The position numbers and the translations under genes were made by a program. A stretch of DNA of 64,000 nucleotides, from the IMG/VR virus record IMGVR_UViG_2703718815_000003, one strand, 5' to 3'. The notes under the pieces were generated by a model, which was not told where the DNA came from, ran no database searches, and saw nothing but the letters and a program-made list of their open reading frames with translations. This document shows positions 897-61,259 of the stretch, in pieces (position 1 is the first letter of the stretch; each line of letters opens with the position of its first letter). Origin of the DNA: a virus. Taxonomy: Duplodnaviria; Heunggongvirae; Uroviricota; Caudoviricetes.

Positions 897-990
897 TGTT
901 GAATATGCTCCTTGATTTGGCGGGCTATCCTTGCCCGCCATTAAGTAAATACTTACCTATTTTTACCGATATAAAATTTTTTTTCCACCA

Positions 991-3900
991 TCACAGACGG
1001 CCAATTCTTACTCGTAAGACGTTGTTATCGTCATAAACGTCAATCCGCTGACCATTTATAACCAATCGCCCATTGCCGCCGCTATTACCGTTGATCTCAA
1101 GCGTTCCATTTTTGCCGAACCGCCATCCAGATCTACCGCTAACAAAATTGGTAGATTGCAGATCGCCTACTTTTGCATTGGTGATTGTGCCATCCTTGAT
1201 ATACGCTCCATTCATATAGGCGATACTGTTTTCGATAACAAATGGCGTTGTGATCTTCCCGTTAACAGAGTTGACCAAACCAAACCTGTCCGCCTGAACC
1301 AAAAACTGAGATAGCCCAGTGGTGTCAATACCAAGCGCAATACCGGCAACATACTTCTGCCCTCCGCTCGTTGAAGTCTCCATTTTCAACGTCCACGCGG
1401 TTGACACTTTTTTGTTGGTATCAGCAATAGCTGTTGCCTGCTGTTGAATTGTCGCGGTATTTCCATTCACCTCTGCTTTCAGAGTATCGATTCGCCCACT
1501 CAGAGCATTATCTGCCTGCGTTCTCGCTTTCGTTTCAGTTGTGACCGCCGCGGAAATGTTGGCTGCCGTTTGAGACTCTAAGTTTGTGATTTGAGTCGCC
1601 AATGCAGCATCTTGCTCTGTACGCGTTTTCGTTTCGGTTGCTACAGCAGCTTTAATATCCTCTTTGTATTGAGAGGTCAGCTTGGTGATCTGAGACGACA
1701 ACGCCGAGTCAGCATCAGTTCGAGCCTGCGTTTCAACTGCAACGGCCGCACTAATATCTTTCGCTGTCTGTGCTTTTAAACTTGAAACCTCTTTTGTTAA
1801 AGCGGTATCACCATCTGCACGAGCCGTTGTTTCTCTGGCAAGAGACGCCTTGAGATCATTAGCTTTTGCTGTAAGAGACGTAATCTGGGTAGACAATGCA
1901 CTATCGGCATCAGTCCTTGCTTTTGTCTCTACAGCAACCGCTGCGGCAATATCAGTTCCGGTTTGTGCTCGCAGGCTGTTAATTTCTCGTGAGAGCGCCT
2001 GGTCAGCACTTGCTCTGGCCTCCTGCTCCTGAGTGATGGCAGCGGATATATCACCGTCAACCTTTGACTGAAGCTGGTTTATTTGTTTGGCTAACGCAGA
2101 GTCCCCGCTTGCTCGGGCCTCCTGCTCACTACGTATTGCAGCAGAAATATCATCATCAACCTTTGCCTGAAGTTGGGTGATCTGGCTTGCCAGAGCCGAA
2201 TCTTCCGTTGCTCGGGCTTCTTGCTCTTCCTTAATAGCTGCGACGATATCGTTGCTTACTTTCGACTCAAGCTGAGTGATCTGTGTCGTCAGAGCTTCAT
2301 CGGCAGATGTACGAGCCTCCTGCTCTGTACTAATCGCCGCGCTGATATCTCCTTCAAACTTAGATTGCAGCTGAGTGACACGCTTTGCCAACGCTTCATC
2401 GCCATCGGCACGAGCGGTGGACTCTTCCAGAATACTGGCCTTAATGTCTTCGCCAATTTCTACGCGAATTTCCTCAACCTTCGTGGCCATTGCAGACATA
2501 TCATCAGCAAAGGTTTTCTGTGTTGTTGCGATCTTCGCGTTATTGACCATCTGCTTGTGCTGGTCTTCATCTTGACGAAGAGCCAGGTCAATATTTGTTT
2601 TGGCTAACGCCTCAATGTTCGTAGTCAGTTCTGCACTGGCACGATCGACCTCTGCAACCGTCTTTTTCATTTCTTCAACGGCAGCGGAGCTTTCCTCTAC
2701 CGTTGACTGCAACACTTCCAGTTGTTTAGCGTTTGCAGCATCGCCTTCAACACGAGCCTCGCTTTCCTTAGCAATAAGAGCCGCCGCTTCATCTCTTGCA
2801 GCCTTTATTGCCTCGACTGTATTAGCGAGAGCTTTATCGTGTTCAGATACGGTGTTTTCGATTTCAACAATTGCAGCATCAGTAGCATCAATTTTTTCAA
2901 ACGCTTCATTGACCTTGTCGATCGTTGCCGAAACCTCACCTTTAAGCTCGGTTTGTGCGTTCTCCAAAGCATCGCTACGCTCGTTGAATTTTATTTCAAA
3001 ATCCGCGAGGTTATCGCTGAACTGCTTATCTAATTCAGCTATATCTTCCTTAACGTCGTTTACCGCCCCCTCCAAAGATTCGACGCTCTGGTTGATATGC
3101 TCATTTAACTCGTCAACTGCTTCTTGAGAGGCTTTGCTGTTGATGTCCTCAAGCAGAGCCTGACCAAGCTCGGAAGATGTAATTTTGCCAGTCAGGAACG
3201 ACAGTACATCGCGAGTTGTCGCCTCTGTACCCAAGTTTGAGTTCGGAGGACTTAACATACCTCGCTTGTTCGATGCTCGAACCCAGTAATACCACGTTTC
3301 GCTATCCCCAAGACCAGCATGTGTAAAGGTGGTGCTTGCAGACTCTGCGATCAGTTTCGCCGTATCCAGATTGTTGGTCTGGGATGCGTAAACATTAATG
3401 TGATCAAGGTCTACCGAATCTGGATTAACCCAATTCAGTATCACATTACGATAGTCTCCAACGGCCGTTAATGACGTTGGGGAATCCGGCGGTGTCATTG
3501 TGCCCAACACCTGATAAACGGCACTGATAATCTCTGTTTTTTTACCGTTGAATGAAACCGCATACAGCTGGAAGTCGTAGCGTCCATTCTCCGCGACATT
3601 AACGATTTCGTATTGCTCTTCGGTTACACGCGCCGATTGCCAGTTCGATACATTGTTTTCATCAGAACGTCGCCAACTGATCCAATACTCTGGAGATTTC
3701 CCTTCCCATGTTGCAGTCAGTTTTACTGACAGGTTGCCCGGGCTTGAGAGATAAGTCCCTTCAGTGATTTGCAGATTAGATGGCTTGGAGTAAGTTGGGT
3801 CCAATACCGTCGTATTCTGCGGGATCAGCGTTGCACCATTGTCGATTGCCTCATATTTAGACGGATTGTTCTCAACAGCGGTGATGTCAAAGCTACCCGG

Positions 3901-5718: not shown

Positions 5719-5735
5719 GTTCAAAAAATCCTTGT

Positions 5736-6329: not shown

Positions 6330-7141
6330 GTCTCATCTCCCTTGAGCAAGTCTCTGTGACGCAAGTGATGCGTCGTATGTTTCTGATACATTCCGCCGTA
6401 ATAAGCACGACAACTAAGACGGTCGATCTGGTGATGAAGAATCATTCCATCGCCGATATAAACCGCGCAGTGATCTGGCATTTTCCCGTATTGAATAAAG
6501 AAGACGTCCCCACGTTGAGGCTCTGTTCCAGGTGCAAGCCGTACCAATCCCTCGTTTCGGTAGTTCTGGTCGAGAATGTCGTTATCGCCGGTGTACCACG
6601 ATGGAATATGCAGGTGTGCGTTCGGGTTAAGCTCGACGTTAAACTCACGCTTCAAATAGTCCCGACACAACATCCAGCAATCGAATACGCCAAATACATA
6701 CGGTCTACCCAGGTATGGCATTTCGAAACCATCAGGTGTGATCACATTCATCTCGCTAAAATGGAAAGGGGCATCTCCCTCAACATTCTTGCGAATAGCC
6801 AGAATCATCCACGGAACTTCCGTCGCTTCACAGCCTGCACGATCGGCATCAGATGCTTCTGCTGATTCATCAGTATGTGAATGCCAGATTGCGATTACGT
6901 CACCTGCATCCTCTGCCGCCATAATGTCGTCAACGTGCATTACAAAAGTGTTCTGCGGGTTCTCCGAAACATTTCGCGCTTCCATAAAGCGATATTTGTC
7001 GCCATTAGTTCTCACCAGAAAGCCACACGCTTCATTAGGGTAGCGATTTATGGCGCAGAGATAGATTTGCTGCATAACATCAGAGCCAAGCTCAGGGATT
7101 GCTTTATTACCCATATCGCGTAGCTCCAATAAACCCGCCAA
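6317..7141 (-). CDS. tail tip assembly protein (lambda gpK-like; MPN/JAMM + NlpC/P60)
   Basis: JAMM-like HSHTD...S..D motif followed by NlpC/P60-like Cys...His region; domain order as in lambda K. Confidence 0.7.
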   Translation of the reverse strand: MAGLLELRDMGNKAIPELGSDVMQQIYLCAINRYPNEACGFLVRTNGDKYRFMEARNVSENPQNTFVMHVDDIMAAEDAGDVIAIWHSHTDESAEASDADRAGCEATEVPWMILAIRKNVEGDAPFHFSEMNVITPDGFEMPYLGRPYVFGVFDCWMLCRDYLKREFNVELNPNAHLHIPSWYTGDNDILDQNYRNEGLVRLAPGTEPQRGDVFFIQYGKMPDHCAVYIGDGMILHHQIDRLSCRAYYGGMYQKHTTHHLRHRDLLKGDETCLS

Positions 7142-7805
7142 AATGGATCACTCCGTTGGCAAAATAATTCCGACGCGCATTACAGGCGTCATAACGTTTT
7201 GTGCAGTAATCAGCACCAGACATAGACGTCTGCTGGTTATTTTTGTCGAAATATGGACCGGTATAGCCGCATTCTGGCCCTCGGTATTTCCACGGGCAGG
7301 TGTTTTTAATGATCTGACGATACGGCAGTTGCACCCCCATCAAATCGAACACACTGGACAATTCAAACTCGACAACCTGATGAGTTTCGAGAGTTTTCTG
7401 TTCGATAAACCACATTTCATCCGGGAAATGTTGGTTTGGATCTGCTGTTGGGTTGCCGTCTTTAAAATTAACGGCATCGAGGAAGCGAGCCAGCGTCATC
7501 TTGCGAATAATGCGGCAGCCAACAAGATCGTCGTTCGCCTGAACTTCCGCAGAGACGGTTCCGGCAAAGTTCGATACCTGAATTTTTGGACGTGGCAACG
7601 TTCCCTGGCCAGTTTTGTCAAAGCCTGATGCTTTGATTGGCCACGGCTCGTATGTCACTCCTTGCCAGACGACAGGTTGCATCAGTTCGTTTGTTCCGGC
7701 GTGGAAGAATAACTTCCCCCCTGAAGTTGTGTTCGACATATCCAGTACGAACAACTCAATGAGTGCAGAGGGAGATAAGCTCTGAATATCAGCTTTAATT
7801 CCCAT
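7107..7805 (-). CDS. minor tail protein (lambda gpL-like)
   Basis: Conserved C-terminal Cys cluster (C..C......C); start moved to ATG at 7803-7805 with AAGGATG upstream (track start is non-ATG). Confidence 0.65.
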   Translation of the reverse strand: MGIKADIQSLSPSALIELFVLDMSNTTSGGKLFFHAGTNELMQPVVWQGVTYEPWPIKASGFDKTGQGTLPRPKIQVSNFAGTVSAEVQANDDLVGCRIIRKMTLARFLDAVNFKDGNPTADPNQHFPDEMWFIEQKTLETHQVVEFELSSVFDLMGVQLPYRQIIKNTCPWKYRGPECGYTGPYFDKNNQQTSMSGADYCTKRYDACNARRNYFANGVIHFGGFIGATRYG

Positions 7806-7887
7806 TGTTTCATCCTTGAAATAAGTAGGCGCTAACATCCTGTCAGCGCCACAATGATAGTAAATTAGTACTTACTTATCTAGATAC

Positions 7888-14326: not shown

Positions 14327-14400
14327 TGATGGAAAACTCCTTTTTCCGTTAATTCTACGCATTCATTGCGCTAATAGTAAGTATATACTTACCAATTGAG

Positions 14401-17921: not shown

Positions 17922-17948
17922 AAAGGGTGGGCGTATAGCCCACCCTTT
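17922..17948 (-). terminator. intrinsic terminator after capsid gene
   Basis: aaagggtgggc gtata gcccaccctt hairpin followed by TTTTT on minus strand, then AGGAG and the decoration-gene ATG. Confidence 0.6.
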
Positions 17949-17979
17949 AACATAGATAATTACTTATCTACTTCACTGA

Positions 17980-19789: not shown

Positions 19790-21364
19790 TCACTCGTTCT
19801 CTTGAGTAGATGAGTCCCCATTCCCTCGGGGTTGATCTTGCCCGCTTTCTTGGGCTGCGCCTTGATCATAAGTAAGTACTGACTTATTTTCAAGGGTATT
19901 TAGATCATTTTTTGGCGGAAAATTCAAGAGATCTTTATCAAATTCCTTCTTCATCGCCTCAGTGATGTTCGGGAAAATCTTCTCAATCAGCATTTCCATC
20001 TGGTGACGACGTACAGAGTCCGGTGCCTGAAGTAACGACAGTTTCTCGGCAACAGAAAATTCATCAGTAAGGCCACGAATATCGAAACTTTCTGGATACG
20101 CAATTAATGAGTGGTCTTCGTCCAGATCTACCCCCCTCCATTTCGCAACCAGTTGCATGATTTGACGTTCTGCCCTTTCCAGACGTTCTGCTTTTGTGAC
20201 AAGCAAGCTATTTACACGCTGGAAGTCATACATTTTTGCGGCACCAGATGAATTATCTATTCCCTGTGCGTTGTCCTGCTTCGTTCGCTCACCAGCTACA
20301 CCAACTGAATGGTAGATTTCGTTAATCACCGTTTTAATCGTAGTGATGATCATCTGAGCTTGTTTCGGGTCTGGTGACAGATAAAACGGCTGGTTTCCAC
20401 CTTCAGAATCGTAGGTGAAGACTCGTTTTGTACCCATTTCAAGCACTTTAGTGTGGTTTTCATCGCCAGGTAAAAGCGATTGTACCGGTATGGCCAACTG
20501 GCTAAATGTCTGATCCTGAATAATGGCATCAAGGTTTGAAAGATAGTTTGCAACCGCACGATCCAGATAAGCGATATCATCGATTAACGATGGGCTGAAA
20601 TACGGTGATTCGCTTTCTCCAATACAATCAACAGGAAACACCGGAACTACGCCGAGATTATGCGCACCGCTATCCTCTAAAATAACTTTTGCCTGACGGC
20701 GACCTGCTCCACCAGCGCCCTTCTTCACTTCCTCACGGAACAGATACCACTCGTTTTGTGTCCACAGACGATAACGTTGGTATTCCTGACCTGTAGAAGT
20801 AAAAGGATCTGCGTCATCACGAGCGACTTCCACAATTAACGCCCACAACATATTCCCGTCGTCGTCCCATGCCACATCCAGCATTTGCTGAGGTGAAATC
20901 CAGTAGGCGTAGGCGCGAGCATCTTTCTTTTTCTCGTCAGCTACTGACTCAACATCACCACTCATCGTGCTATCGACAACAACCCATATGCGACCGTAAA
21001 TAGACGACTGCAAATCAATAGCGGCCATAAATGAGTCAATAGAGGCATTCTGGCGGGTCGCACGTTTCCAGAAATTGCGGATCTGCTCTGGAGCCTCTTC
21101 AATATTTCTATGAATGTCTTCTTTAAAGAGATATTTGTTGATGAGGTTTACCACCTCACGAGTGTGGTTGAAGCGATAAGCACGCTCAACTCGCTCCTTA
21201 AACTCCTGATCTCCCTCTTTAAAGTAACGAAAGATATTGTCAGTAAACCAACCACGCCCGCCAGCGTAGGTGCTGGCGAGGAAGTCCCAATGTTCTTTTT
21301 TCTTTTCGTATTCCGGGTGGCGTCGCGCCACCAGATCCTTAATTTGTTTGTCGTTCAATTCCAT
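19790..21364 (-). CDS. portal protein
   Basis: 524 aa immediately downstream of large terminase; acidic C-terminal tail. Confidence 0.75.
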   Translation of the reverse strand: MELNDKQIKDLVARRHPEYEKKKEHWDFLASTYAGGRGWFTDNIFRYFKEGDQEFKERVERAYRFNHTREVVNLINKYLFKEDIHRNIEEAPEQIRNFWKRATRQNASIDSFMAAIDLQSSIYGRIWVVVDSTMSGDVESVADEKKKDARAYAYWISPQQMLDVAWDDDGNMLWALIVEVARDDADPFTSTGQEYQRYRLWTQNEWYLFREEVKKGAGGAGRRQAKVILEDSGAHNLGVVPVFPVDCIGESESPYFSPSLIDDIAYLDRAVANYLSNLDAIIQDQTFSQLAIPVQSLLPGDENHTKVLEMGTKRVFTYDSEGGNQPFYLSPDPKQAQMIITTIKTVINEIYHSVGVAGERTKQDNAQGIDNSSGAAKMYDFQRVNSLLVTKAERLERAERQIMQLVAKWRGVDLDEDHSLIAYPESFDIRGLTDEFSVAEKLSLLQAPDSVRRHQMEMLIEKIFPNITEAMKKEFDKDLLNFPPKNDLNTLENKSVLTYDQGAAQESGQDQPRGNGDSSTQENE

Positions 21365-21390
21365 TTGAATAACCTTAGATAATTACTTAC

Positions 21391-22647
21391 CTACCTAGAG
21401 CCACCAAGAATAACACGGTTTTTGACTGGATACCTACGATGTACTGGATAGCCCAATGCGTCTGCACTATGCTCAATGCCACCTGTCTTATCCATATCTC
21501 GTGTTCCAGGCTTGTAGATGACTTTTTCCAGTGAATCAATCAAATGCTTGCACTTCGGATCGATATACAGCCGGATATCTCCAGATGCGGTCATCAGCAT
21601 TCGGTTAACAGCATTAACACGATCCGCAATTGGCGGGTGCTTTTTCGAATAATCGACACGTAAGAATCCCTTCTCTTTGAATATGTCGACGTCAGACTCC
21701 CCGCGAGCATGTTGGCGATAAGCACCTGCCGGATCTGGAAATACCGTTATCTGTGATTTCCAGCGCCAGAAGCGTCTCTCAAGCTCATCACAAACCTCTG
21801 CCGTGTTAGAGGAAAAGAGCACCAATTCATCAATTGCCCATAGCTCACCATTTGGCTGAGGTTGCAAAATTACTGAAGACATCGGGTCAATGTTGAAGTC
21901 CTGCCCTACCCATATAGGCAACCGAGGGTTGAACTGAAGCGGTTTTACATGCACGTTACGATCGAACGGGTAGTAAACGCGCCCGGACATGTTCTCAAAG
22001 CTCGCCAGGTACTCCTGAGCGAACGATTTGGGGTCCATATCGTTCTTAGCAGCTTCAATTTCCGCCGTAGGTACAAACGGAGAATCGGCAGTTACAAACT
22101 GCCAGCTCTTCCACTGTCCCTTTCTTTGCAGCTCTACGTTCTGGCCTATAGTCCACAGTTTGTGAAATTCCGAGAAGCCTTTTGGCGTACCAATGATCAG
22201 CGCACCGCCGCGTGTCGATGAAAGAGTAGGTCGTAACACCTTGTACCAGGTGTCAGCCTTCATATCCTGAAATTCATCAAGCACTACAAAATGCAACGCT
22301 ACGCCGCGCAGAGTGTCAGGCTTATCAGCACCTTTGAGGGCGATCTCCGAACCGTTCTTCAACACGATTGTCATCGTGGTGTCGTTCTTTTTCCTAACCC
22401 ACTTACGAGGCAGAACTTCCTGTAGATCGTCCCACAAAATCTGGCGAGCCATCTGGTAAGTAGGAGCGACATACCAGACTCTTTGCTTTTTTTCCTTTGC
22501 CGCCGCACGAATAATAGTGGAGATCGACAACCGGGATTTTCCCCAGCGTCGACCAGCACAAACAACTTTAAATCGATGCGGAGACTGGAAGACTTTCATC
22601 TGTCCAGAATGCAGTTGCACAAGACTGAGCGAGGACGGGATTGCCAT
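21391..22647 (-). CDS. terminase large subunit
   Basis: Walker A CAGRRWGKS near N-terminus, Walker B VVLDEFQ, C-terminal nuclease-like region with conserved Asp residues. Confidence 0.85.
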   Translation of the reverse strand: MAIPSSLSLVQLHSGQMKVFQSPHRFKVVCAGRRWGKSRLSISTIIRAAAKEKKQRVWYVAPTYQMARQILWDDLQEVLPRKWVRKKNDTTMTIVLKNGSEIALKGADKPDTLRGVALHFVVLDEFQDMKADTWYKVLRPTLSSTRGGALIIGTPKGFSEFHKLWTIGQNVELQRKGQWKSWQFVTADSPFVPTAEIEAAKNDMDPKSFAQEYLASFENMSGRVYYPFDRNVHVKPLQFNPRLPIWVGQDFNIDPMSSVILQPQPNGELWAIDELVLFSSNTAEVCDELERRFWRWKSQITVFPDPAGAYRQHARGESDVDIFKEKGFLRVDYSKKHPPIADRVNAVNRMLMTASGDIRLYIDPKCKHLIDSLEKVIYKPGTRDMDKTGGIEHSADALGYPVHRRYPVKNRVILGGSR

Positions 22648-23374: not shown

Positions 23375-23473
23375 GGTCTGGGCATGTCTTACTAAGCCTG
23401 CTTCCGTATATATTTAATAAGTTACTTATTATTTATATATACAGAAGCAGGTCTTTAAATAAGCTCCCAGACC
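23375..23473. repeat. about 100-bp imperfect inverted repeat; second copy at 54684-54775
   Basis: Arms ggtctggg...cctgcttccgtatatat around an AT-rich centre. Confidence 0.5.
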
Positions 23474-26649: not shown

Positions 26650-26666
26650 TTTATTGCTACAATCCA

Positions 26667-26694
26667 CTAAGTAATCACTTACTTACTATAATAG
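26667..26694. promoter_or_regulatory. palindromic TAAGTA...TACTTA motif in divergent promoter region
   Basis: ctaagtaatcacttacttactataatag between the divergent ParB operon and helicase gene. Confidence 0.4.
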
Positions 26695-28293: not shown

Positions 28294-28572
28294 ATGAGCG
28301 AAAAGAAAACAACTTATTGCCAAGTGGCATTGTCTGATAAGGCCAATGAAAAACTTGGAAAATTTCAAATAAAACTCAAAGAGAAAAAAATCAAGATGTC
28401 TAAAGCTGAAGTTATCAATGCCATTCTGGAGACGATGACTATGGCTGAATTTGACAAAGTCACATCTGCTGTTGGGGTTTCCGCTAAGACGCGTGAGAAA
28501 ATCATGCGCATCTATGAAAACTCCAATATGACAAAAAAAGATTTAGAGGAAATACTGAGCAGGTTGCCGTAA
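28294..28572 (+). CDS. hypothetical small protein
   Basis: 92-aa Lys-rich ORF directly after helicase. Confidence 0.4.
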   Translation: MSEKKTTYCQVALSDKANEKLGKFQIKLKEKKIKMSKAEVINAILETMTMAEFDKVTSAVGVSAKTREKIMRIYENSNMTKKDLEEILSRLP

Positions 28573-29838: not shown

Positions 29839-30453
29839 TTGGATTATCATGATATGAAAATGAAACTTTCGTTACTCCTTGCTTGTATATACCTCCCGGC
29901 GTTTTCCGCCAACGCATTATCAGATTTCGTCTATGACATGCAAAAAACGTACAGCATGTTTACCTCCGAAGACGTAGTAGAATACAAATCACGAGGTCTG
30001 AATCAGCCAGTTTGGTTCAGATTCTCAGACAACGCAGAAGAAACAATACTTAATGGAGGAAAAGAAAGATTACGGTTGCAAATTAACGGGACCGCTGTAC
30101 CAGAAAACGTTAATGTAAGCTCTGACGAAGCCATGAAGCCATCTGGAATTGTTTTAGAAGTTCAAGACGGCACACTTTACTGTGATGAAATGGCTACAAC
30201 AGGTTGCCAAGTAAACATTAGGGTTGGCAATGAAGAGCCTATCGTTACTTACGCCAAGGCTGAAGGGAATACAAGTGGAAAGGTATTGTTTATCGATGAA
30301 AATATCTCAAAACGTATCGTTCGTGACATACAGAAAACAGCTAACTCTAAATCCGTCGATAAAAAAATCTATGTTGAGGTTCCCTTCTTTGTCGTTGGTA
30401 ACAAAGAATTTAAATTTGGGTTGCTGAAAACACCTCTAAGAGTATCAGAATGA
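29839..30453 (+). CDS. predicted secreted protein
   Basis: N-terminal signal-peptide-like MKMKLSLLLACIYLPAFSANA; exact start uncertain (ATGs at 29839, 29854, 29860). Confidence 0.5.
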   Translation: MDYHDMKMKLSLLLACIYLPAFSANALSDFVYDMQKTYSMFTSEDVVEYKSRGLNQPVWFRFSDNAEETILNGGKERLRLQINGTAVPENVNVSSDEAMKPSGIVLEVQDGTLYCDEMATTGCQVNIRVGNEEPIVTYAKAEGNTSGKVLFIDENISKRIVRDIQKTANSKSVDKKIYVEVPFFVVGNKEFKFGLLKTPLRVSE

Positions 30454-30974
30454 GAACATTGGACATCACCTACGGCATACCGGCTGAAGTCTGGCCGCGA
30501 GACTACGAACATGCTGAGAACATACTTATGTTCTGGCGGAAGAACAACATTCCTGTAAGAGTCACGCTTGAAGACGGTCAGGTGTTTTGCATGTACGTTC
30601 AGGGGACAATGCCTTCACGCAATAAGCTAGATTTATGCCCGATTCCATATGATAAAGAAAATCGTATAAGACTCCCACTTGAGCGCATTAGCACAATTGA
30701 ATCAGGTGTAATCGATGGCATTGCTCGCGAGTTCAAAGGTAGGCTAACAATACATCCAGACTATGTTGACAATCAGCCATCACGCCGTGACTTTTTTGCG
30801 ATATGTCGCAAGGCTTATCAAAACGACCAATCTATAAGGGTCTACATGACAGACGGTCGTGAAATAGAAGGGGTGTCAAGAGGCGTTGATGCTTGCCAGG
30901 TCACTCTTAAGTTAGAAGACGGCAGAAAAATACTTGTTTTCTTCGATTGGGTTGAACGAATCCTTCCATTTTAA
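30450..30974 (+). CDS. hypothetical protein
   Basis: 174-aa ORF overlapping previous stop. Confidence 0.5.
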   Translation: MRTLDITYGIPAEVWPRDYEHAENILMFWRKNNIPVRVTLEDGQVFCMYVQGTMPSRNKLDLCPIPYDKENRIRLPLERISTIESGVIDGIAREFKGRLTIHPDYVDNQPSRRDFFAICRKAYQNDQSIRVYMTDGREIEGVSRGVDACQVTLKLEDGRKILVFFDWVERILPF

Positions 30975-35005: not shown

Positions 35006-35131
35006 TTCACTCTCCGTAGTGTTTTGGTTATTTTTATATTCTATGATAGTAAGTATGTACTTACAATACAAAAAAGCCCCGTAAGGATGGCGGGGCTGTC
35101 GTACTGTCGACTAATTGCCACTTGCACATTA

Positions 35132-42006: not shown

Positions 42007-42396
42007 CTACATCACGGGACAATCATCAAACTCGCCACTTCTTGCGTCGTTGATAATGTGAGTGATCACACCAAACACGGCATTGCTGCCCGTGCATCCA
42101 TCGTCATCCTTTGGCAATGCTTCCTTCTTACCGGTTCTTAAATCCTCCAGATGCTGACGTGGGTACTTCCGGTATCTTTTTACGCGATATTCCCCATCCA
42201 GAGCGCATACAAGCAGAGAACCATCAACCGGGGTAAGTGAGGAATCGACCACCAGCAATGCACCCTGTAATATTCCCTCACGATGATGACTATCAGCTGC
42301 CCTCATGAAGTAGGTCGCTGAAGGATGTCTAATTATCTGCTGATCAAGAGAAATACGGCTCTCAGCATAATCCGCCGCAGGAGAAGGGAAGCCCAT
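42007..42396 (-). CDS. UmuD'-like S24 peptidase-fold protein (pre-truncated UmuD homologue)
   Basis: Starts MGFPSPAADYAE...HPSATYF, i.e. at the UmuD segment after the RecA-cleavage site; Ser (AADSH) and Lys (VKRYRK) positions retained; no umuC partner; AGAGG RBS. Confidence 0.75.
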   Translation of the reverse strand: MGFPSPAADYAESRISLDQQIIRHPSATYFMRAADSHHREGILQGALLVVDSSLTPVDGSLLVCALDGEYRVKRYRKYPRQHLEDLRTGKKEALPKDDDGCTGSNAVFGVITHIINDARSGEFDDCPVM

Positions 42397-47080: not shown

Positions 47081-47461
47081 CTAATTGCCGGATAAAATGG
47101 GTTGAGGTGCTTGCCAGTAAGCTCCACCGTCCCATGTGAACCCCATGCGAATAAGAGTGTTTATTGCGGCTTTGGTAGACTCTGATTCGACACTGACTTT
47201 TCGAAACTCTTGAACCTCTTTCGCCAACCTGTATGTAATTGTGCAGGGGACGATTGCAGCCCAGCCTTTCTCATGACTGTTAATGACCATCTGGATGTGA
47301 CCATCCAGAATAGGTTGATTAGGCATGTTATTGAAAATGTCTGCCTGTTTTTGAATGTGAAGAAAAAGCCTTGCCAGTGCCATTTGCTCACTACGAGACA
47401 AGGGATTATCAAGAGGACTTTTTGCAAAAGCGGCTATACGCTGTGCATCAATGCCAAACAT
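47081..47461 (-). CDS. hypothetical protein
   Basis: 126-aa ORF. Confidence 0.45.
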   Translation of the reverse strand: MFGIDAQRIAAFAKSPLDNPLSRSEQMALARLFLHIQKQADIFNNMPNQPILDGHIQMVINSHEKGWAAIVPCTITYRLAKEVQEFRKVSVESESTKAAINTLIRMGFTWDGGAYWQAPQPILSGN

Positions 47462-48165
47462 CAGCGCACCTCACCATCTTTATGGCTGGAGTTAACTTCC
47501 GCCATTAAATGTCTGACGTAATCGACAAGAGAGCCACCTGGTGGAATCTGGCATTCCTCAACTAACTGGAAGTAGATATCCGCTGCATTACGTGTATTAC
47601 TACCCTCGCATATTCTTTCTTCCCGAAGTGCATGAAGCTCGCTGATCAAACGGTCACACTCTCCGTTACGCTGATCCACAACGGCCTCAAGCTCTGCGAC
47701 GCGTTCACCTGGCGTCTTACCTTCTTTGCGTTGGATGGTAACGACGAAATCGCCAATTGCAGGGACGTTGTAATCCAGCTCAAGGTAGTTTTTGGCACCG
47801 CTGCGGACGAACTCACCCGCGAACATGGTGGCGAACATCGCAGAGGCCACTTCGCCGTTGAAAAGTGACTCCAGATCTAACGGAGTCCCGGCAGCAAGAG
47901 CCTCTTTTGCTGTATCCATTGCATCCATGAACCGATCAAACTCACTAGCGCGCTTTTCCAGGTCTTTCCATTGCTCGCTCCAACGTTTGGCAACGAAGTC
48001 TATGAATGTTTTCGCGGATTCATCAAAATTCCCCTCAAACTTAACGATGCCTTTATCAATAATGATCTGGCCTACCGCATCCTCTGCATAACCTTTCAAT
48101 GTAAACTTGAAAGGAAAATCAGAATGGCCTGTGACGTTAAAATGCTCTAACTGGAGGTTGTTCAT
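47461..48165 (-). CDS. hypothetical protein
   Basis: 234-aa ORF. Confidence 0.5.
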   Translation of the reverse strand: MNNLQLEHFNVTGHSDFPFKFTLKGYAEDAVGQIIIDKGIVKFEGNFDESAKTFIDFVAKRWSEQWKDLEKRASEFDRFMDAMDTAKEALAAGTPLDLESLFNGEVASAMFATMFAGEFVRSGAKNYLELDYNVPAIGDFVVTIQRKEGKTPGERVAELEAVVDQRNGECDRLISELHALREERICEGSNTRNAADIYFQLVEECQIPPGGSLVDYVRHLMAEVNSSHKDGEVR

Positions 48166-48226
48166 GTGTTTTTCTCTTATCGTTTAGTTACTACATTCTT
48201 ACACAAATTAAGTAAGTATTTACCTA

Positions 48227-49912
48227 TCATTTAACGCATTTGAAAACGTATACGCTGACTGTGATCCCTGTGTCTTCAAACTCGTTGGTAAACGACTTCC
48301 CTCTGGCATAAACGTAATTATCCATCGTCATCCAGTCCAGTATTGGCGCAGTGCCCGGCAATACTGCTACAAGACGCCCGCCGACTTTCAGATGCCCCAG
48401 CGCAGCCAGCGTGTGCTCTCTATGACGACCAAGCGAGTACGGCGGGTTCATAACGATTTTGTCGAACTGATAACCTGCGTTGTCCTCAGACCACTTTATG
48501 AAGTCGCAGCAAATCGTGTTCGTATACCCTTTTCCAAGCAGGATATCAGCGAAGAGAGGTGCGATTTCTATGCAGGTAACATCTTCCAGATCGGCGTTAA
48601 TATAGGCCAGAAGATCCCCACGTCCGGCTTGAGGCTCCAGCAGCTTCTCACCAGGCTTCAATTCAGTGGCTCTGGCAACGTACTCAGCAATCAAGCGTGG
48701 GGTAGGGTAGAACTGGTGTGATTTTGTATCCGGTATTAAACCGGTAGCCACAATCGTATTTAGCGTATGGCCGATGTCATACGGGAACTGCCAGTGCTTT
48801 TTCTCCTGCACGCCGCCAATGAAGCTCAGTGTGCGCTCAAGCTCTTCCACCTGCGACTTCTGGAGAGCTGAATCAGAGAAGTACCATACGCCTTTGTCTT
48901 TGCTCAATCGCCCGTCACGAAGCGCAGTGCGAACCGGCACGGAGATCGTCTTCTGGATTAACCCGAACTGCTTTGGTGCCCGTGTTTTTGGCGCAGTTCG
49001 GCATGGCGCGGGGATTGCAGCAGGCATACTGTAAGCCAGCACCTCATTCAACTTCCAGGCCACGTCAGGATGTATTTCAAAGTGAACGTTGCCGTTCTTG
49101 AACATCTTCACGCGCATCAGATTTCCATCGACGTTCATCCAGTCACCGGTCTGGCAGTCGTTTGCTCGATACGCAGCTGATAGCACCTCAGCAGTGCGGT
49201 TGATGGTAATAAATTCTTTGTGCGCGAAGAAATGAAGCAAGACACGCAGATCGTCGATGTAGTCCTCTTTGCGATAGTTCACGCTAACGCTGTCCCGCCA
49301 GAAATCAGAAATGCAGTCAGCGATTATCAGACGCTCGCTGAAACCGTTTGTCTTATTTGTCTTGTGCGCAGGACTCAGCGCCTTAAACAAGCCATACACG
49401 CGCTCAGAGAGATATTTGTGCCTGTCATTCAGCAAATTAAGCATCGTGGGTATGACCGTTTCTGCTTTGAACTCCGGTACACCAACGAACTCTTTAACCT
49501 TCATCTGGTAGCCGGTTCTGTCAGTTTTGATGACTTCCTGTTTGCCCTCTATAAACTGCTCGCGCCACTCATCTCGACGGGAAGCTGGCATGATCAGCAA
49601 AACGTTAGTCATGTCCGTGACCTTCCTCCAGTACTCGGCCCAAATATTCTGTTTCACCCATTCCAGATCGACTTTATCCAACCAACCTCGATTTAAACGC
49701 GAGCGATCTTCATCTGGTCGATGGTTTAGTCTCAGCAGGCGATTAATCATGTTGTGGCGTTCGTCGCCATAAACGAAGTCGTGAACCTGATACATGAAGG
49801 CGATCTCTTTCTCGCACTCGGCCACAATTTCGTGGATGACGTTCATTTCCTGCCGATAGTCGATAGCAGTGTTTGAGTTGGCATCGTCGATGATGGAAAG
49901 GGCTGTATTCAT
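48227..49912 (-). CDS. DNA methyltransferase (N6A/N4C type) with large N-terminal domain
   Basis: C-terminal AdoMet motif LEPQAGRGDL followed by catalytic MNPPYS. Confidence 0.65.
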   Translation of the reverse strand: MNTALSIIDDANSNTAIDYRQEMNVIHEIVAECEKEIAFMYQVHDFVYGDERHNMINRLLRLNHRPDEDRSRLNRGWLDKVDLEWVKQNIWAEYWRKVTDMTNVLLIMPASRRDEWREQFIEGKQEVIKTDRTGYQMKVKEFVGVPEFKAETVIPTMLNLLNDRHKYLSERVYGLFKALSPAHKTNKTNGFSERLIIADCISDFWRDSVSVNYRKEDYIDDLRVLLHFFAHKEFITINRTAEVLSAAYRANDCQTGDWMNVDGNLMRVKMFKNGNVHFEIHPDVAWKLNEVLAYSMPAAIPAPCRTAPKTRAPKQFGLIQKTISVPVRTALRDGRLSKDKGVWYFSDSALQKSQVEELERTLSFIGGVQEKKHWQFPYDIGHTLNTIVATGLIPDTKSHQFYPTPRLIAEYVARATELKPGEKLLEPQAGRGDLLAYINADLEDVTCIEIAPLFADILLGKGYTNTICCDFIKWSEDNAGYQFDKIVMNPPYSLGRHREHTLAALGHLKVGGRLVAVLPGTAPILDWMTMDNYVYARGKSFTNEFEDTGITVSVYVFKCVK

Positions 49913-52552: not shown

Positions 52553-53047
52553 TTAGTCACAGCATGATCCTGAGTAACTGGATGAACTTGAGGTATCGCA
52601 TCCACCGCCATCCCATCCAGAGTGACAGGACGCTCCACTGGAGTGGTGGTAATTGTCGTCGACGAAGGTGTGGTGATGGATGAATCCGGCATCAAAAGGC
52701 TCTGACCGGCTGGAACGGCTACCGTCGCCAGTGAAACTATAATGAGAACGTAGGCCATTGGTTTCAGCCTCTTTCTTTGAAAATTTTCCATTCGAACTGT
52801 CCTTGTTGTTTTTCTCCTTCACTAAAGGCCGTGCATTTTTCGCTTCGCGTGAAGAGCCAGAGGCAACAATCGCCCCCACGTTCGCAACAACTGACGCTTG
52901 ATTATCTAAACGTTCATTCAGCAACCGAACGGTAGTCTCTAGTTCTTCAAGGCGTGACATAACACGACCGCTAAATAATTCGGCCAAAATTTGACGTAAA
53001 GAACGAGGGCGTTTAGTTACAGAAGTGAAATAGGTTTGACGTGCCAT
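52553..53047 (-). CDS. hypothetical protein; C-terminal half low-complexity, alternative embedded ORF 52540-52791
   Basis: N-terminal coiled coil; second half Ser/Gly/His-rich; embedded out-of-frame ORF has a hydrophobic N-terminus. Confidence 0.35.
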   Translation of the reverse strand: MARQTYFTSVTKRPRSLRQILAELFSGRVMSRLEELETTVRLLNERLDNQASVVANVGAIVASGSSREAKNARPLVKEKNNKDSSNGKFSKKEAETNGLRSHYSFTGDGSRSSRSEPFDAGFIHHHTFVDDNYHHSSGASCHSGWDGGGCDTSSSSSYSGSCCD

Positions 53048-53195
53048 GTGGACTCCATCCAGTGTCAGAAAGAGTTGCGGCTGGCGATTGCCAGCCGCCT
53101 TTCTCGTTCCATCCTGGAACTGTGTCTTACCGACACATTGTCATCCTGACGCCGATAAGATACATGATTTAAAATGATAGGTAAACACTTACTTA

Positions 53196-53786
53196 CTATT
53201 TATTATAAACAAAACCAATATCTTTCTTGTGAGGCATATCTGCTGCTGAAAAAGCTGCGATCTTCGCGAGTCGATCACATATTTCATTTTCACGATGCCC
53301 GGCGTGACCTTTAACCCACTTCCAGCGAACATTATGTCGACTTGCGGCCTCATCCAGACGCTTCCACAGATCAACATTCTTTACCGGTTTTTTGTCAGAA
53401 GTCATCCATCCATTGCGTTTCCACCATTTCATCCACTGTGTCATGCCGTTTTTCAGATACTGGCTATCAGAGTGCAAAATAACGTTGCATGGATATTTCA
53501 AACGCTCCAGCCCGATAAGTGCCCCCATCATCTCCATGCGGTTATTGGTGGTGCTATGAAAACCATCTGAGAACTCGCGTTCCTCACCACGATACTGGAG
53601 AACTATACCGTAACCGCCCGGGCCACCCGGATTTTTAAGGCAAGAGCCATCACTGAAGATTTTCACGGTTTTAAGCTGGGGATTGAACTCTACGACAGGC
53701 GTTGTGGAATTGGTGCGGGGAGAATTTTTGTTTTTGGCTTTTTTGCGAGTTTTTTCTTGCGATCGGGCTGGTGTCTTCGTCGTCAT
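53196..53786 (-). CDS. rnhA: ribonuclease H (RnhA-like)
   Basis: RNase H1-like motifs [37 protein letters not shown]; start ATG 53786 with AGGAG. Confidence 0.8.
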
Positions 53787-53879: not shown

Positions 53880-54370
53880 TCCCAGAACAGGTTTTTATAA
53901 ACCTGAACTGAACGAACGAAGTGAGTGAAGTTCACCTCGAACGAAGTGAGAGGTTGTCTTTTCAGGTAATACTCTCCCAGGGAGGTGAGTATAAAAATCC
54001 CTCACCAACCTGGTCGTTTCATAACCTGAAAAGTTATGGTCTAAGTCTACTGCCAGCTTAGACTTGGGAAGTTATGGATGACAGCACCCCAGAACCGAGA
54101 TCTTCCCACACTTTATGAAGGGGAGTACTGGATTCAACCTCTCGAAACACCCCAGACTCGACAATCATAAAGTGACCCTTGTCTCCGCTCACTTTGGTTC
54201 CCCCTTCCCCGACACCTAAACGGCACCAGTTCTACGCTGGTAGTGAGCTTTTTTAAACCTGACGCCAGTGACGCTTACCCCCACCCATCAGGTCGAGTCT
54301 CCAGTCTACGACTGGAAACTATCAGATCTTAGCACTTACAATTCACTTTATGAATAGTTTGTACTTATCT
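53880..54370. other. about 500-bp non-coding region with direct repeats and hairpins
   Basis: cgaacgaagtgag x2, aagttatgg x2, hairpin ctaagtctactgccagcttagacttgg; no convincing ORF. Confidence 0.4.
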
Positions 54371-54683: not shown

Positions 54684-54775
54684 GGTCTGGAGTCTCTGAT
54701 ACAAAACAGCCTGCTTCCGTATATTAATAATTAATATGTAGTTATTTATATATACAGAAGCAGGCTAATTACAGA
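54684..54775. repeat. second copy of the imperfect inverted repeat seen at 23375-23473
   Basis: Shares ggtctgg...agcctgcttccgtatat...atatatacagaagcagg. Confidence 0.5.
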
Positions 54776-55381: not shown

Positions 55382-55564
55382 CTTCTTTCTCGATAGGTAA
55401 GTAAATACCTATTTTTGCATTTGATTTTATGTCTGGCAATCAAATAAAACGCGCCAGAAATGCAAACGAGAAGCTCTCTGGCGCGTTTTTGTGGTGCTGG
55501 GTATGTGATTGGCTTACCCAGCACTATAAAGCTCTCTATGGGCTTTATTTTCAGTAGGGGAACG

Positions 55565-56374: not shown

Positions 56375-56532
56375 GTAAGTCTCCTTCTGTTTGGTTACAT
56401 TTGCGTTTCGATGGCTACATTTTGACTAAACCTATCAGGCGGAAAAGTATTAAATACAGGCAGGAAATGATTGAAAGGCGACTGTTCTTTAAAAGAAAGC
56501 CTACTTTAAACTTTTTAAAGTAGGCTTTTGTT

Positions 56533-57090: not shown

Positions 57091-57099
57091 CAGAACTCC

Positions 57100-57519: not shown

Positions 57520-57580
57520 TTTTTATCCTTAACCCATTTTGAGAGTTTTATTGTCGCAATGTCGAAGAGGCGAACAATTT

Positions 57581-58225: not shown

Positions 58226-58701
58226 TACGACCTTCTGTATACGATCTGCGAAAAGCCAGGCTCTTCCTCGCTGGCTCGTTGGGTATAAGCTGTTTCAACA
58301 GGCACAAAGCCTAAATTACGCATCATGCTTGCCGGGAAGAATGCATCGGCGTTTGGCACATCAACGCCGATGTGGGAGAGCCAAATCTCTTCAACATGCG
58401 GCATGAATAGCGAGTAAATTTGTTCCCCGCCAATCACCCACACAGGCTCTGGTAATCGCAACACATCATCCACACCAGCAGGGTAGAATCCATTTGGTAC
58501 AAAGCCATGAGAGCGCGTCAAAACGAGGTTATGACGCTCTGGAAGAGGGCGTTTGAGACTTTCCATCGTTTTACGCCCCATAACGACAGTGGCGTTTTTG
58601 GTGAGTCTCTTAAATAGCTTCAGATCGGTAGAACAACGCCAGGGGAGTTCATTCGCTATGCCGATCTCATAGTTACGGCCAACAGCAGCGATCATCTTCA
58701 T
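58225..58701 (-). CDS. frd: dihydrofolate reductase
   Basis: MKMIAAVGRNYEIGIANELPW N-terminus and VVMGRKT, VIGG motifs; 158 aa. Confidence 0.85.
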   Translation of the reverse strand: MKMIAAVGRNYEIGIANELPWRCSTDLKLFKRLTKNATVVMGRKTMESLKRPLPERHNLVLTRSHGFVPNGFYPAGVDDVLRLPEPVWVIGGEQIYSLFMPHVEEIWLSHIGVDVPNADAFFPASMMRNLGFVPVETAYTQRASEEEPGFSQIVYRRS

Positions 58702-59111
58702 TTGCTCACCTCATAGATGACCGGTCGATGGTGAGAGTCGGCTAAAGCGGCACGGAGTCGAGGATCGTGCACCAGCGCAGCGATAAGCAGATCGCCTTTA
58801 TGCTCCGCTAATGTGCGCTTAATATGCTTCTCATAACTGGTGCCATTCGGTACGAGATGAAGCCAGTCATAATCAACGCCAAAATCTTTCAGCCATCGTT
58901 TAGTTGGCGCTTCAAGAGTTTCAGAGCGGCTACTGATAAGCACCACTTCAGCCCCTGAGCGAGCAAAACCACGCAACATACGGCTGGTGGGGAAAATGAG
59001 TTCATCACCGGCAATGAGCTGGCCTGCATCCGCGTCAGATACTGATTTACGATGGCTGGCATTTGCCAGCACACCTTCAATTTCGCATAAGACATACATA
59101 CCTCTTGCCAT
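58698..59111 (-). CDS. hypothetical protein (possible nucleotidase/phosphatase)
   Basis: Function guessed only from position between thymidylate synthase and DHFR; start uncertain. Confidence 0.35.
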   Translation of the reverse strand: MARGMYVLCEIEGVLANASHRKSVSDADAGQLIAGDELIFPTSRMLRGFARSGAEVVLISSRSETLEAPTKRWLKDFGVDYDWLHLVPNGTSYEKHIKRTLAEHKGDLLIAALVHDPRLRAALADSHHRPVIYEVSK

Positions 59112-59112
59112 A

Positions 59113-60243
59113 TCACACCGCCACTGGAACCTTGATCCACGATAGAGGGTCATAGCCAAGAATTAAAACCTCGTCCCATTTGAAATCATCCAACTCTGAC
59201 CATTCATGAGGGAAAATAACGACCGGATCTGAATGCTCTGGAGCCTGTCGTTTCATTAGCTCACACACACCTTCCATGTGGTTGTTGTACAAATGCACGT
59301 CAAAGCCAAAATGCACAAATGCACCGGCCATGTGACCCGTAATCTTCGCGAGAAAATGAGTGAGAATGCCATAGCCAGCAATATTGAATGGCATACCAAC
59401 AAAAGTGTCTACGCTACGCTGTACGAGGCAGGAGTTGAGGATGCGTTTGGGGATTCCAAGTTCATCCAGTTCAGCTTCAGTAACACTGCCGTCCATCTCC
59501 AGATCGTATAGCATCTTGGTGTAGATAGACTCGTAACCGAGGCGACTGTGTTGAAGACCAATGTCAGTTGCCATCGTTAAACGGGTTTCAAAATCCAGCT
59601 CACGACTCCACAAAGAGAAGACAAAGTGGCAAGGTGGCAGTTTCATATCCTCAAGCTCGCCTACGTTCCATGCGTTAAGCATGATGCGACGATCGGTAGG
59701 GTTCGTGCGCAGTGTATCGACAATACGCTGTAGCTGATCGATTTCACGGGACAGCACTACGCGATCTTCACTGATACCCAGGTATCCCTCGACTTTGTAC
59801 CCGCGTTCACGGAAAGTAGCGATCTTGCTCAGATATTCACTATGGCTCACGATGCGGGTATCTTCCCATCGACGCCACTGCTTACCGTAAACCGGCCCCA
59901 AATCGCCATTCTCATCGGCCCATGCATCCCAAATCTTAACGCCGTTATCCTTGAGAAATTGGATGTTGCCCGTGCCTTTCAGATACCACTCAAGTTCGAC
60001 AAGCAGTGGCTTAAGATTTACCGCCTTTCCAGAAATAAGCGGCACAGTCCCACCAGTAAGCATGTAGTAAGAGGGAACGTAGCAGGTGCTTAAAGTACCA
60101 GTGCCTGTGCGATCATCAGCCTGCACGCCGCTTTTAAGCACCGTCTCAATAACTTTTGCATACGATGCGTTTGTTACCTGACCGTTCGTATGCTCACGAT
60201 TCAAAAGGAGTGACACAAAAACCTCACAAAGATAAGTAACCAC
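59113..60243 (-). CDS. thyA: thymidylate synthase (ThyA family, with insertions)
   Basis: DRTGTGT, GDLGPVYGKQWR, LPPCH active-site motif; track start is GTG, true start may be GTG at 60216 (GAGG upstream). Confidence 0.9.
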   Translation of the reverse strand: MVTYLCEVFVSLLLNREHTNGQVTNASYAKVIETVLKSGVQADDRTGTGTLSTCYVPSYYMLTGGTVPLISGKAVNLKPLLVELEWYLKGTGNIQFLKDNGVKIWDAWADENGDLGPVYGKQWRRWEDTRIVSHSEYLSKIATFRERGYKVEGYLGISEDRVVLSREIDQLQRIVDTLRTNPTDRRIMLNAWNVGELEDMKLPPCHFVFSLWSRELDFETRLTMATDIGLQHSRLGYESIYTKMLYDLEMDGSVTEAELDELGIPKRILNSCLVQRSVDTFVGMPFNIAGYGILTHFLAKITGHMAGAFVHFGFDVHLYNNHMEGVCELMKRQAPEHSDPVVIFPHEWSELDDFKWDEVLILGYDPLSWIKVPVAV

Positions 60244-60386
60244 TTATTAATTACGTGAGTTTACATTTATTGAGAGAACAAGACCAGACAGATAAAAAAA
60301 TGGTGGCCATAGGCCACCAAAACGAATAGTCATTCCAGAGTTTTATTACGCATGTTAAATATACACAGATAGATAACTACCTACAA

Positions 60387-61259
60387 TTATTTTTTGATCA
60401 TTCCGTACATTGCTGAGGCTTTAGCTTGCTCAACAAAGGAGGATAAATCGACATCACTATAGGTTGGAGACTTCAGAATCTTTCCATCGGAAATTCGAAA
60501 ACCGATCATCTTATCGGTGCCATCAGCATGGCGGAATCCCAGATCTGAAGAGTCGTATTTGCAGTTGGCCACAGCCTGGCGACGTTCCTCAACATCAGCA
60601 GGCCATAATTTTGTCATGTTAGACCGATGAATTTCGCCAACCAGCTCGACGACATTGATACCGAGGAAATCAGCCAGTCGATAAGTCATCATGCACGCCA
60701 CATAGATTTTGTTCATTACACGGCGCAGTTCCTGAATCAGCTCAGAATCCTTAACAGTCTTCTTCTCAAGTTTATCTGCCAGCTCTTCGAGCATACATGA
60801 CGCCTCACGAGCTTCCTGAAATGGCATTGCCATATCATCGAAAACAGTGTTACCGGGCACAAAAATTGTCTGCATAAAGCGATCAATGCTCTGTTCCTGC
60901 GTGTAATAGGTCATGCCGGTAGAAATACCACCTTTGATGGAGACCATCGTACCAACACCAACGTATAAAAAGTCGGCCATTGCATCCAGCAGTTGCTCAA
61001 TATCCCCATTCATTGCGGCTGGAATACCTTCCACTACAGCTTCTTCATGAATCAGGCTTGCACGGAGACGAAGCAGCTCTGGTGTCGGCATAACGCGTCT
61101 CGGATGCTGGAAGAGTTCATGAAACTGATCGACCATCTTGTAAATACTTTCAGTGGCTACACCATGGCCTTCATGCAACTCATATGGTTCTGGCTTAAAT
61201 CCAATGAGTCGATCGGTGGCAAGTTTCAGGTGGTCAGTCAGTTTGGTAAAGTTCATGCT
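60387..61259 (-). CDS. all-alpha NTP pyrophosphohydrolase-like protein (MazG/dimeric dUTPase-like, candidate)
   Basis: Two helical segments with E..EE...D/E patterns (LIHEEAVVEG..IEQLLDAMAD; VELVGEIHRSN); start set to MNFTK ATG at 61259. Confidence 0.4.
   Translation of the reverse strand, partial: SMNFTKLTDHLKLATDRLIGFKPEPYELHEGHGVATESIYKMVDQFHELFQHPRRVMPTPELLRLRASLIHEEAVVEGIPAAMNGDIEQLLDAMADFLYVGVGTMVSIKGGISTGMTYYTQEQSIDRFMQTIFVPGNTVFDDMAMPFQEAREASCMLEELADKLEKKTVKDSELIQELRRVMNKIYVACMMTYRLADFLGINVVELVGEIHRSNMTKLWPADVEERRQAVANCKYDSSDLGFRHADGTDKMIGFRISDGKILKSPTYSDVDLSSFVEQAKASAMYGMIKK

Follow-up and report, generated by a model that had tools for sequence, protein, structure and literature searches.

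A family-specific near-palindrome heads the lytic units of an SSU5-like phage-plasmid and is a putative dispersed operator of a global repressor

The window analysed here is a stretch of 64,000 nucleotides from a Caudoviricetes genome (IMG/VR record IMGVR_UViG_2703718815_000003), in which a near-palindromic sequence recurs at gene junctions. Because a 12-kb slice of it matched Escherichia phages Cyrano (98%), CMS-2020a (97%) and PhiR41_1 (96%), and also Salmonella phage SSU5 (82%) and several Klebsiella phages (79%), the window was assigned to an SSU5-like phage-plasmid of Escherichia coli. This family includes pHCM2 of Salmonella Typhi and many elements of E. coli, Klebsiella and Enterobacter. 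Most genes of the window are on the minus strand, those for tail, head and packaging at 1-26.6 kb and accessory, replication and nucleotide-metabolism genes at 32-64 kb; the single plus-strand cluster lies at 26.7-32.2 kb.

The near-palindrome is present in 13 copies (Table 1), with the consensus TGATAGGTAAGT·ACTTACCTATCA (the dot marks the centre of symmetry). The pattern TARRTRNNYAYYTA had 13 matches at 11 loci, compared with 0.10 expected from dinucleotide-preserving shuffles, which is an enrichment of more than 100-fold over chance. Half-sites formed 16 convergent pairs, compared with 0.12 in Markov simulations, and just two everted ones. The window was scanned with a symmetric weight matrix and with an earlier one (referred to as the first matrix), the scores of which can differ; with the symmetric matrix, most sites scored between 16 and 33 bits. 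Non-coding DNA, which according to crude gene calls makes up ∼8% of the window, harboured 12 of the 13 copies (binomial p ∼1e-12). A preceding sequence-only reading of this DNA had listed 11 copies of a 20-26-bp palindrome with the half-site TAAGTA/TACTTA, placed after stop codons and before the next start. All 11 positions bear the motif, within a few bases, and the placement holds for 12 of the 13 copies, that is, coding regions are not equally populated. The consensus is longer than had been thought, however (24-26 bp), two good copies had been overlooked (19865-19890 and 60227-60252), and two of those listed (7857-7884 and 60364-60389) are degenerate. Further copies had been placed in the loops of two long inverted repeats, 23375-23473 (upstream of the small terminase gene) and 54684-54775 (downstream of the methyltransferase gene), but the resemblance there is weak (7-13 bits). 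These belong to a separate repeat family with a common arm, CCTGCTTC(C/T)GTATATA; folded as single-stranded DNA, they gave z-scores of −8.2 and −4.8.

Table 1. Copies of the near-palindrome in the window and the two candidate genes for its reader. Scores are from the symmetric matrix unless stated otherwise; −/+ in brackets, strand.
Feature	Coordinates	Genetic context	Score (bits)	Overlapping or adjoining elements	Orthologous copies
Palindrome	938..963 (centre between 950 and 951)	Between tail J-like stop (991) and tail-fibre start (897, −)	28.5	GC hairpin comes next	SSU5 21936; Cyrano 22458
Degenerate palindrome	7857..7884	Upstream of minor tail L-like gene (7107-7838, −)	20.4		SSU5 15584; Cyrano 15539
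Palindrome, +4 class (ATTGGTAAGTAT·ATACTTACTATT)	14372..14397	Upstream of tail protein gene	21.6	Predicted promoter TTGAAT-18-TATACT, −10 at palindrome centre; found by promoter tool (14409-14380, −) and own scan	
Palindrome	17949..17974	Directly past major capsid gene stop, before Ig-domain protein gene	21.2	Intrinsic-terminator-like hairpin with T-run, 17945-17929 (−), between palindrome and Ig-domain gene	
Palindrome	19865..19890	Within 3′ end of portal open reading frame, ∼109 nt upstream of next gene	29.3	Occupies spacer and −10 of near-consensus promoter TTGAAA-17-TATGAT	
Palindrome	21372..21397	Fills large terminase-portal junction	21.2	Terminase stop codon inside left arm; portal Shine-Dalgarno sequence adjoins right arm	
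Weaker palindrome	26664..26689	82-bp divergent region between ParB-like operon (−) and helicase/92-aa protein/FljA-like operon (+)	16.7	Abuts perfect TATAAT, 26687-26692 (+)	SSU5 99797; Cyrano 105117
Palindrome, +4 class	35044..35069	Directly past intrinsic terminator	12.0; 22.4 with first matrix	Overlaps predicted promoter TTGTAA-17-TAGAAT (promoter score 11.5)	
Palindrome	48205..48230	Between 561-aa gene stop and Ead/Ea22-like gene (47461-48165, −)	32.8		
Palindrome	53174..53199	Upstream of gene 52553-53047 (−)	31.2	Predicted promoter TTTACC-17-TATCTT, −35 in right arm	
Palindrome	55390..55415	21-22 nt upstream of adenine methyltransferase start	30.9	Predicted promoter TTGCCA-17-TGnAAAAAT, transcript start near palindrome centre, kept in 15/15 orthologues; promoter tool independently reports 55439-55411 (−), with TG	
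Palindrome	60227..60252	∼20 nt upstream of thymidylate synthase GTG start	18.6; 29.2 with first matrix		
Degenerate palindrome	60364..60389	Directly past MazG-like gene stop	6.5; 22.1 with first matrix		Better copy at same junction in SSU5 (72356)
92-aa protein gene (prime candidate for the reader, putative)	28294..28572 (+)	Cyrano CYRAN_117; phrog_1466			
FljA-like protein gene, PF03614 (second candidate, putative)	30450..30974 (+)	Pfam E 9e-81			

For the anatomy of the site, 212 copies were gathered from the window, SSU5, PhiR41_1 and IMG/VR loci, and those with unambiguous gene orientation were aligned on the symmetry centre. The resulting consensus, (A/T)(G/A)ATAGGTAAGT·ACTTACCTAT(C/T)A, is 24-26 bp long and its logo is mirror-symmetric; for instance, R at −7 and Y at +7 occur at similar frequencies. 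The information sits in two 8-bp blocks (positions 3-10 on each side), and the four central bases are variable. Orienting the sites by gene direction revealed only a mild asymmetry, being A-rich upstream and purine-rich downstream, where ribosome-binding sites begin. A minority class, to which the copies at 14372-14397 and 35044-35069 belong, has four additional central bases (e.g., ATAAGTAAGTAT·ATACTTACTTAT). Most copies contain a −10-like hexamer, TATCAT, at +8 to +13 (T.96, A.95, T.80, N, A.62, T.56), and most have no −35 match that could pair with it. On the opposite strand, the mirror image of the hexamer resembles a −10 no less well (T at the sixth position,.76 vs.56). Thus, the built-in TATCAT seems to belong to the symmetric site and not to be a promoter element with a direction. 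On the minus strand, GC-rich hairpins directly follow three palindromes of the late region (17929-17945, ∼905-925 and ∼7825-7848). Between the two palindromes of the MazG-like/thymidylate synthase gap (60252-60364, −) lie a 7-codon mini-ORF (open reading frame; ATGCGTAATAAAACTCTGGAATGA), a GC-rich hairpin (GGTGGCCTATGGCCACC) and a T-run, an arrangement which, judged by its sequence, looks like a leader peptide or attenuator.

SSU5 carries ∼25 and Cyrano ∼21 copies, and nearly all of these occupy gene junctions that have one in the window too. The structural and lysis genes preceded by the motif are those for portal, the protein encoded after portal, the Ig-domain head protein, the tail protein, minor tail L, the tail fibre and, in Cyrano, the holin. 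Among replication and recombination genes, it precedes the gene before the DnaB-like helicase gene, SSB and an SbcD-like nuclease, and among those for nucleotide metabolism and modification NrdA, thymidylate synthase, the adenine methyltransferase and a ParB-like gene. Early units are therefore headed by it as well as late ones. Toxin-antitoxin, ParA and RepA units have no copy, and the only one associated with the immunity-side plus-strand cluster is the weak palindrome in its divergent control region (26664-26689). Scanning IMG/VR with a single exact form of the motif yielded 120 loci. Among these, all loci with at least two copies are homologous to SSU5-like phages, except one (L119) with two copies and no detectable homology; unrelated loci had zero or one copy. 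The sites of the host transcription factors considered (Fur, TyrR, LacI/GalR-type, LexA, ArgR and CRP) do not match, and the motif is confined to the phage family, so that a host factor was rejected as its reader. Neither the motif, including its literal sequence strings, nor regulation in SSU5 is described in the searchable full-text literature, which does not extend to subscription-only papers on pHCM2. The motif is a real, strongly non-random and family-specific regulatory site.

A palindrome close to a start codon could act on DNA or, once transcribed, as RNA. In the latter case, it would be an AU-rich hairpin in the transcript that affects processing or stability, terminates weakly or acts as an operator on translation. 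Many copies are indeed located immediately upstream of a Shine-Dalgarno sequence, and one invariant product of the phage family is an FljA-like protein modelled as two Hfq-like domains, which, by analogy with FljA on fliC mRNA, might be the reader of such a hairpin; FljA proteins act post-transcriptionally on this mRNA (PMC2652032). In the leader of E. coli fliC, ATAGGATAA closely precedes the start codon and loosely resembles a half-site. However, this resemblance requires a gap and concerns only one arm, and inspection of the leader as a possible carrier of the motif gave nothing more. The arms themselves show no sign of maintained pairing. In 71 distinct sites, 656 Watson-Crick pairs were observed where 644 would be expected if the arms varied independently; the corresponding values were 71 and 76 for G-U, and 57 and 60 for A-C. 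There was, hence, neither compensatory change nor a preference for G-U between the arms of these sites, A-C was as frequent as G-U, and 28% of the pairs at position 7 were non-canonical. At orthologous junctions, pairwise differences amounted to 4.3% in the 8-bp core blocks, 19.6% in the central 4 bp and 15-25% in the flanks, which means that the central bases change without compensation. Mirror-symmetric conservation is also not required of an RNA hairpin that is read by a protein, and no Rfam family matched in the window. Pairing kept by compensation, as in a terminator, an RNase III site or a repetitive extragenic palindrome (REP)-like hairpin, was not found. Action as RNA is thus very improbable. 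Conservation of the arms separately from each other, without maintained pairing and with a free centre, points to a double-stranded DNA site, in which a symmetric protein would contact two grooves ∼12 bp apart, rather than to a hairpin. The nuclease and RNA-processing functions suggested by the sequence-only reading are unsupported for the same reasons, and its further suggestion, a site for a phage regulator, has become the favoured one, given the mirror-symmetric conservation, the independently varying arms and the confinement to one family.

How the sites relate to promoters was assessed with a simple sigma-70 model, scored over all promoters that would overlap a palindrome. The mean score in gene direction was 8.6, compared with 6.6 on the opposite strand, 5.8 for flank-shuffled controls and 4.0 for random windows. 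Scores of at least 10 were reached by 31% of the sites, but only by 4.9% of the shuffled controls and 1.2% of the random windows. In the window, predicted promoters scoring at least 8.6 overlap 7 of the 13 copies. The promoter tool found just four promoter-like sites between 13.5 and 22 kb, two of which are on palindromes, including the best one. The promoter at 19865-19890 matches 10 of 12 consensus positions, is the top promoter of the 8.5-kb late region and is conserved in 12 of 12 scored variants; both 8-bp core blocks of the palindrome are identical in all its orthologous variants, which number 12-14 according to the clustering used. The Shine-Dalgarno sequence begins directly past the palindrome in at least three orthologous groups, so transcripts must start within or upstream of it. 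The register of the predicted promoters differs from junction to junction, the −10 being found at position +8, on the centre, at position −14 or, where an arm contains the −35, downstream. The earlier suggestion of late promoters is borne out insofar as sigma-70-like promoters overlap many copies, but early genes are headed too and, with such a variable register between palindrome and hexamer, an operator fits better than a dedicated promoter element.

The main rival to a repressor operator is a binding site for a phage-encoded activator which replaces the −35, with the built-in TATCAT serving as the −10. A precedent exists in the Lpa-dependent late promoters of phage P1 with their inverted repeat near −22. 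The hexamer at its constant position in most copies, mostly without a −35 match, is what such an activator site would contain. However, its mirror image is at least as −10-like, and the best promoter predictions fall into different registers. Some copies lie inside near-consensus promoters (TTGAAA-17-TATGAT), which should need no activator. In addition, transcription starting ∼20 nt from the centre would leave the Shine-Dalgarno sequence off the transcript in those groups where it adjoins the palindrome, and copies head early as well as late genes. Since an activator site would need a fixed geometry, the variable register and the near-consensus promoters favour a repressor operator, and control by an activator is considered unlikely.

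Expression in the lysogenic state could be evaluated for Cyrano, because RNA-seq data for all its genes in a lysogen are contained in a study on strain LF82 (PMC9928086, supplementary table). Against a background of 9.8, 19 of the 20 genes that immediately follow a palindrome were at background in LB (lysogeny broth), including CYRAN_4 and CYRAN_56, which are behind near-consensus promoters. Conversely, only one of the 20 genes expressed in the lysogen, CYRAN_34, follows a palindrome. In macrophages at 6 h, the largest rises in expression were observed for genes just after palindromes (CYRAN_12/13, 56/57 and 60-62). Silence of the downstream genes in the lysogen agrees with active repression without proving it, and both this silence and the rises in macrophages are also what an activator would produce. 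Two other loci stood out in the same data set. CYRAN_81 (78657-78791 in Cyrano; equivalent to ∼54050-54200 of the window, −), annotated as a "gene" of 44 codons beside the second long inverted repeat, had an expression of 117 and could be a small regulatory RNA, although it matches no Rfam family. CYRAN_98, corresponding to 42007-42396 (−), encodes a UmuD/LexA-like S24 peptidase and reached 148; as Cyrano is reportedly induced by ciprofloxacin, this gene may link induction to the SOS response.

According to the reading preferred here, a global repressor controls the early and late lytic operons through the palindromes as its dispersed operators; the probability assigned to this is roughly 0.55. 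One phage-encoded symmetric DNA-binding protein, dimeric or tetrameric, would read all of them as duplex DNA. Each operator would head a lytic unit, be it for structural proteins, DNA replication and recombination or nucleotide metabolism, and would overlap the −35, the spacer, the −10 or the start site of a promoter of the host sigma-70 type. In the plasmid-prophage state, the bound protein would prevent access of RNA polymerase, thereby keeping the whole lytic programme silent, and at junctions too tight for a promoter, it may block read-through instead. The weaker copy at 26664-26689 is located beside an operon expressed in the lysogen and would serve autoregulation; a weak site abutting the perfect TATAAT of the plus-strand operon is the layout expected for this. 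What the data show is the motif with its enrichment, placement and mirror symmetry, the absence of a constraint on pairing, the overlap with promoter-like sequences and the lysogen silence; that the reader represses is inferred, and so is its identity, which is addressed below.

Several findings weigh against this repressor. The built-in −10-like TATCAT at a fixed position is reminiscent of an activator-dependent promoter, and the class with four additional central bases is awkward for a rigid dimer. Six of the 13 sites in the window have only weak promoter predictions, and AT-rich DNA gives false promoter matches. Lysogen silence fits a missing activator equally well, and the contrast between expressed genes following a palindrome (1 of 20) and the remainder (19 of 103) is not statistically significant. 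Neither were the expression steps of Cyrano at palindrome junctions significantly larger than those elsewhere (p 0.064). Finally, modules for lysogeny and plasmid maintenance have no copies apart from the weak one at 26664-26689.

The tight junctions also bring up a different mode of action, in which the bound protein would mainly stall elongating RNA polymerase or would be a regulator of the DNA-organising or sliding-clamp type, comparable to the stoperators of L5 or to KorB/ParB of IncP plasmids, instead of occluding promoters. Several junctions are too compact for a separate promoter; that between terminase and portal of SSU5 measures 32 nt, with the stop codon inside the palindrome. Copies are found in early and late operons, resembling stoperators in this regard, and two genes with a ParB_N domain are directly downstream of 26664-26689. 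Furthermore, Cyrano expression falls across several palindrome junctions (from gene 30 to 31, 64 to 65, 78 to 79 and 16 to 17). Yet the expression-step test was not significant, the site is palindromic, whereas stoperators are asymmetric and oriented, and the sites show a clear enrichment of promoter-like sequences. Expression of the ParB-like genes in the lysogen is at background (log2 2.3-3.5), and ParB_N was the only domain detected in them. A roadblock or clamp as the principal function is therefore improbable, less so than action as RNA but more so than an activator.

If the operators are read by a repressor, it should be made in the lysogen, and the plus-strand operon beside the weak copy is expressed there (helicase, 46; 92-aa protein, 114; FljA-like protein, 18; background, 9.8). 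The prime candidate for the reader is the 92-aa (amino acid) protein, the highest-expressed conserved gene of this operon. It is 58% identical in SSU5 and belongs to a small family annotated without a function, with ∼25 cluster representatives in 1.8 billion proteins. By eye, its N-terminus has a strand-helix-helix arrangement, similar to ribbon-helix-helix proteins and with the helices at the expected positions. hhalign aligned it in register with CopG, albeit weakly (E 0.016), and gave no match to Mnt. Searches against Pfam, PDB sequences and with Foldseek, including those with a wider alignment, had no meaningful match, and its AlphaFold2 model was poor (predicted local distance difference test [pLDDT] 69). 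Other proteins were dismissed. The "putative repressor" of Cyrano, CYRAN_45, is absent from SSU5 and can thus not explain a family-wide motif. The two ParB_N-domain proteins were at background in the lysogen, and no helix-turn-helix domain was detected in them.

The second candidate is the FljA-like protein of the same operon. It is encoded in 12 of 12 SSU5-like phage records examined, including those of Klebsiella phages, the host of which is non-motile, and on 100-115-kb contigs of many enterobacterial genera. Its AlphaFold2 model (pLDDT 83) consists of two tandem Sm domains, each of a helix plus five strands, and the top Foldseek matches were all Hfq (template modelling score 0.7-0.83 of the target; root-mean-square deviation 1.2-1.4 Å). 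The model suggests that the FljA family are fused Hfq-like RNA binders of phage-plasmid origin, which would fit the post-transcriptional action on fliC, but not obviously a symmetric duplex site. That the palindromes are read by this invariant protein, alone or together with the 92-aa protein, is a doubtful proposition, about as improbable as the roadblock. If true, this phage-plasmid group would have an Hfq-fold master switch acting at ∼25 sites, at the level of DNA or nascent RNA, and FljA, the chromosomal repressor of flagellar phase variation, would be a domesticated phage regulator.

Functionally, the palindrome is closest to the C1 operators of P1, the stoperators of L5 and the KorA/KorB regulon of IncP plasmids; by sequence it is a member of none of these. 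In P1, one immunity protein, C1, acts on many operators distributed over a ∼100-kb plasmid prophage, each overlapping the promoter of a lytic function, and the late genes are controlled indirectly via Lpa. The likeness is one sequence repeated genome-wide at the heads of lytic operons, as in the window, SSU5 and Cyrano. However, C1 operators are asymmetric 17-bp sites (consensus ATTGCTCTAATAAATTT), whereas the palindrome is 24 bp long, unrelated in sequence and located before early and late genes. The stoperators of L5 and Bxb1, which are bound by the repressor gp71, occur in some 20-30 copies per genome, located in the short gaps between genes of early and late operons, near stop and start codons. 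Similarly, all but one of the copies in the window are intergenic, before structural, replication and nucleotide-metabolism genes. In contrast to stoperators, which are asymmetric, 13 bp long and all in one orientation and block elongation, the palindromes are symmetric and score similarly on both strands, and promoter-like sequences overlapping them are enriched. KorA/KorB share with the present system that repeated palindromic operators at about a dozen promoters around a plasmid coordinate many operons, but sequence and length are different, the lysogen has the phage ParB_N genes at background only, and nothing was found that connects these with the motif. A ParB with a helix-turn-helix that is expressed during maintenance, as in systems of the ParB/KorB-parS type, was not found either.

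With regard to the ribbon-helix-helix candidate, the Arc and Mnt operators of P22 are relevant, short palindromes with a TAGA/TAGG-type box in each half, which are read by dimers of dimers. The Arc/Mnt sequences, ATGATAGAAGCACTCTACTAT and TAGGTCCACGGTGGACCTA, appear to resemble ATGATAGGTAAGT·ACTTACCTATCAT at the outer ends. Unlike the genome-wide set described here, P22 has one site for each, and the ribbon-helix-helix fold of the 92-aa protein is only putative. The Lpa promoters of P1 have an inverted repeat near the −10 and no −35, and the centre of the palindrome would likewise be at about −19.5 if TATCAT were the −10. The palindromes differ from Lpa promoters in that early genes have them too, the other strand carries a mirror image of the hexamer and the best promoter predictions share no common register; the combination of a fixed distance, absence of a −35 and late genes only was not found.

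SSU5-like phage-plasmids are frequent in clinical Enterobacteriaceae, and phage-plasmids as a group are able to carry resistance genes. The searchable literature contains no account of how SSU5-like elements silence ∼100 kb of lytic genes. One conserved operator heading nearly every lytic unit would provide a concrete map of the regulon and predict which promoters fire upon induction. Its sequence would be a bait for finding the master regulator, and the motif is at the same time a simple sequence signature by which members of the SSU5-like family can be recognised.

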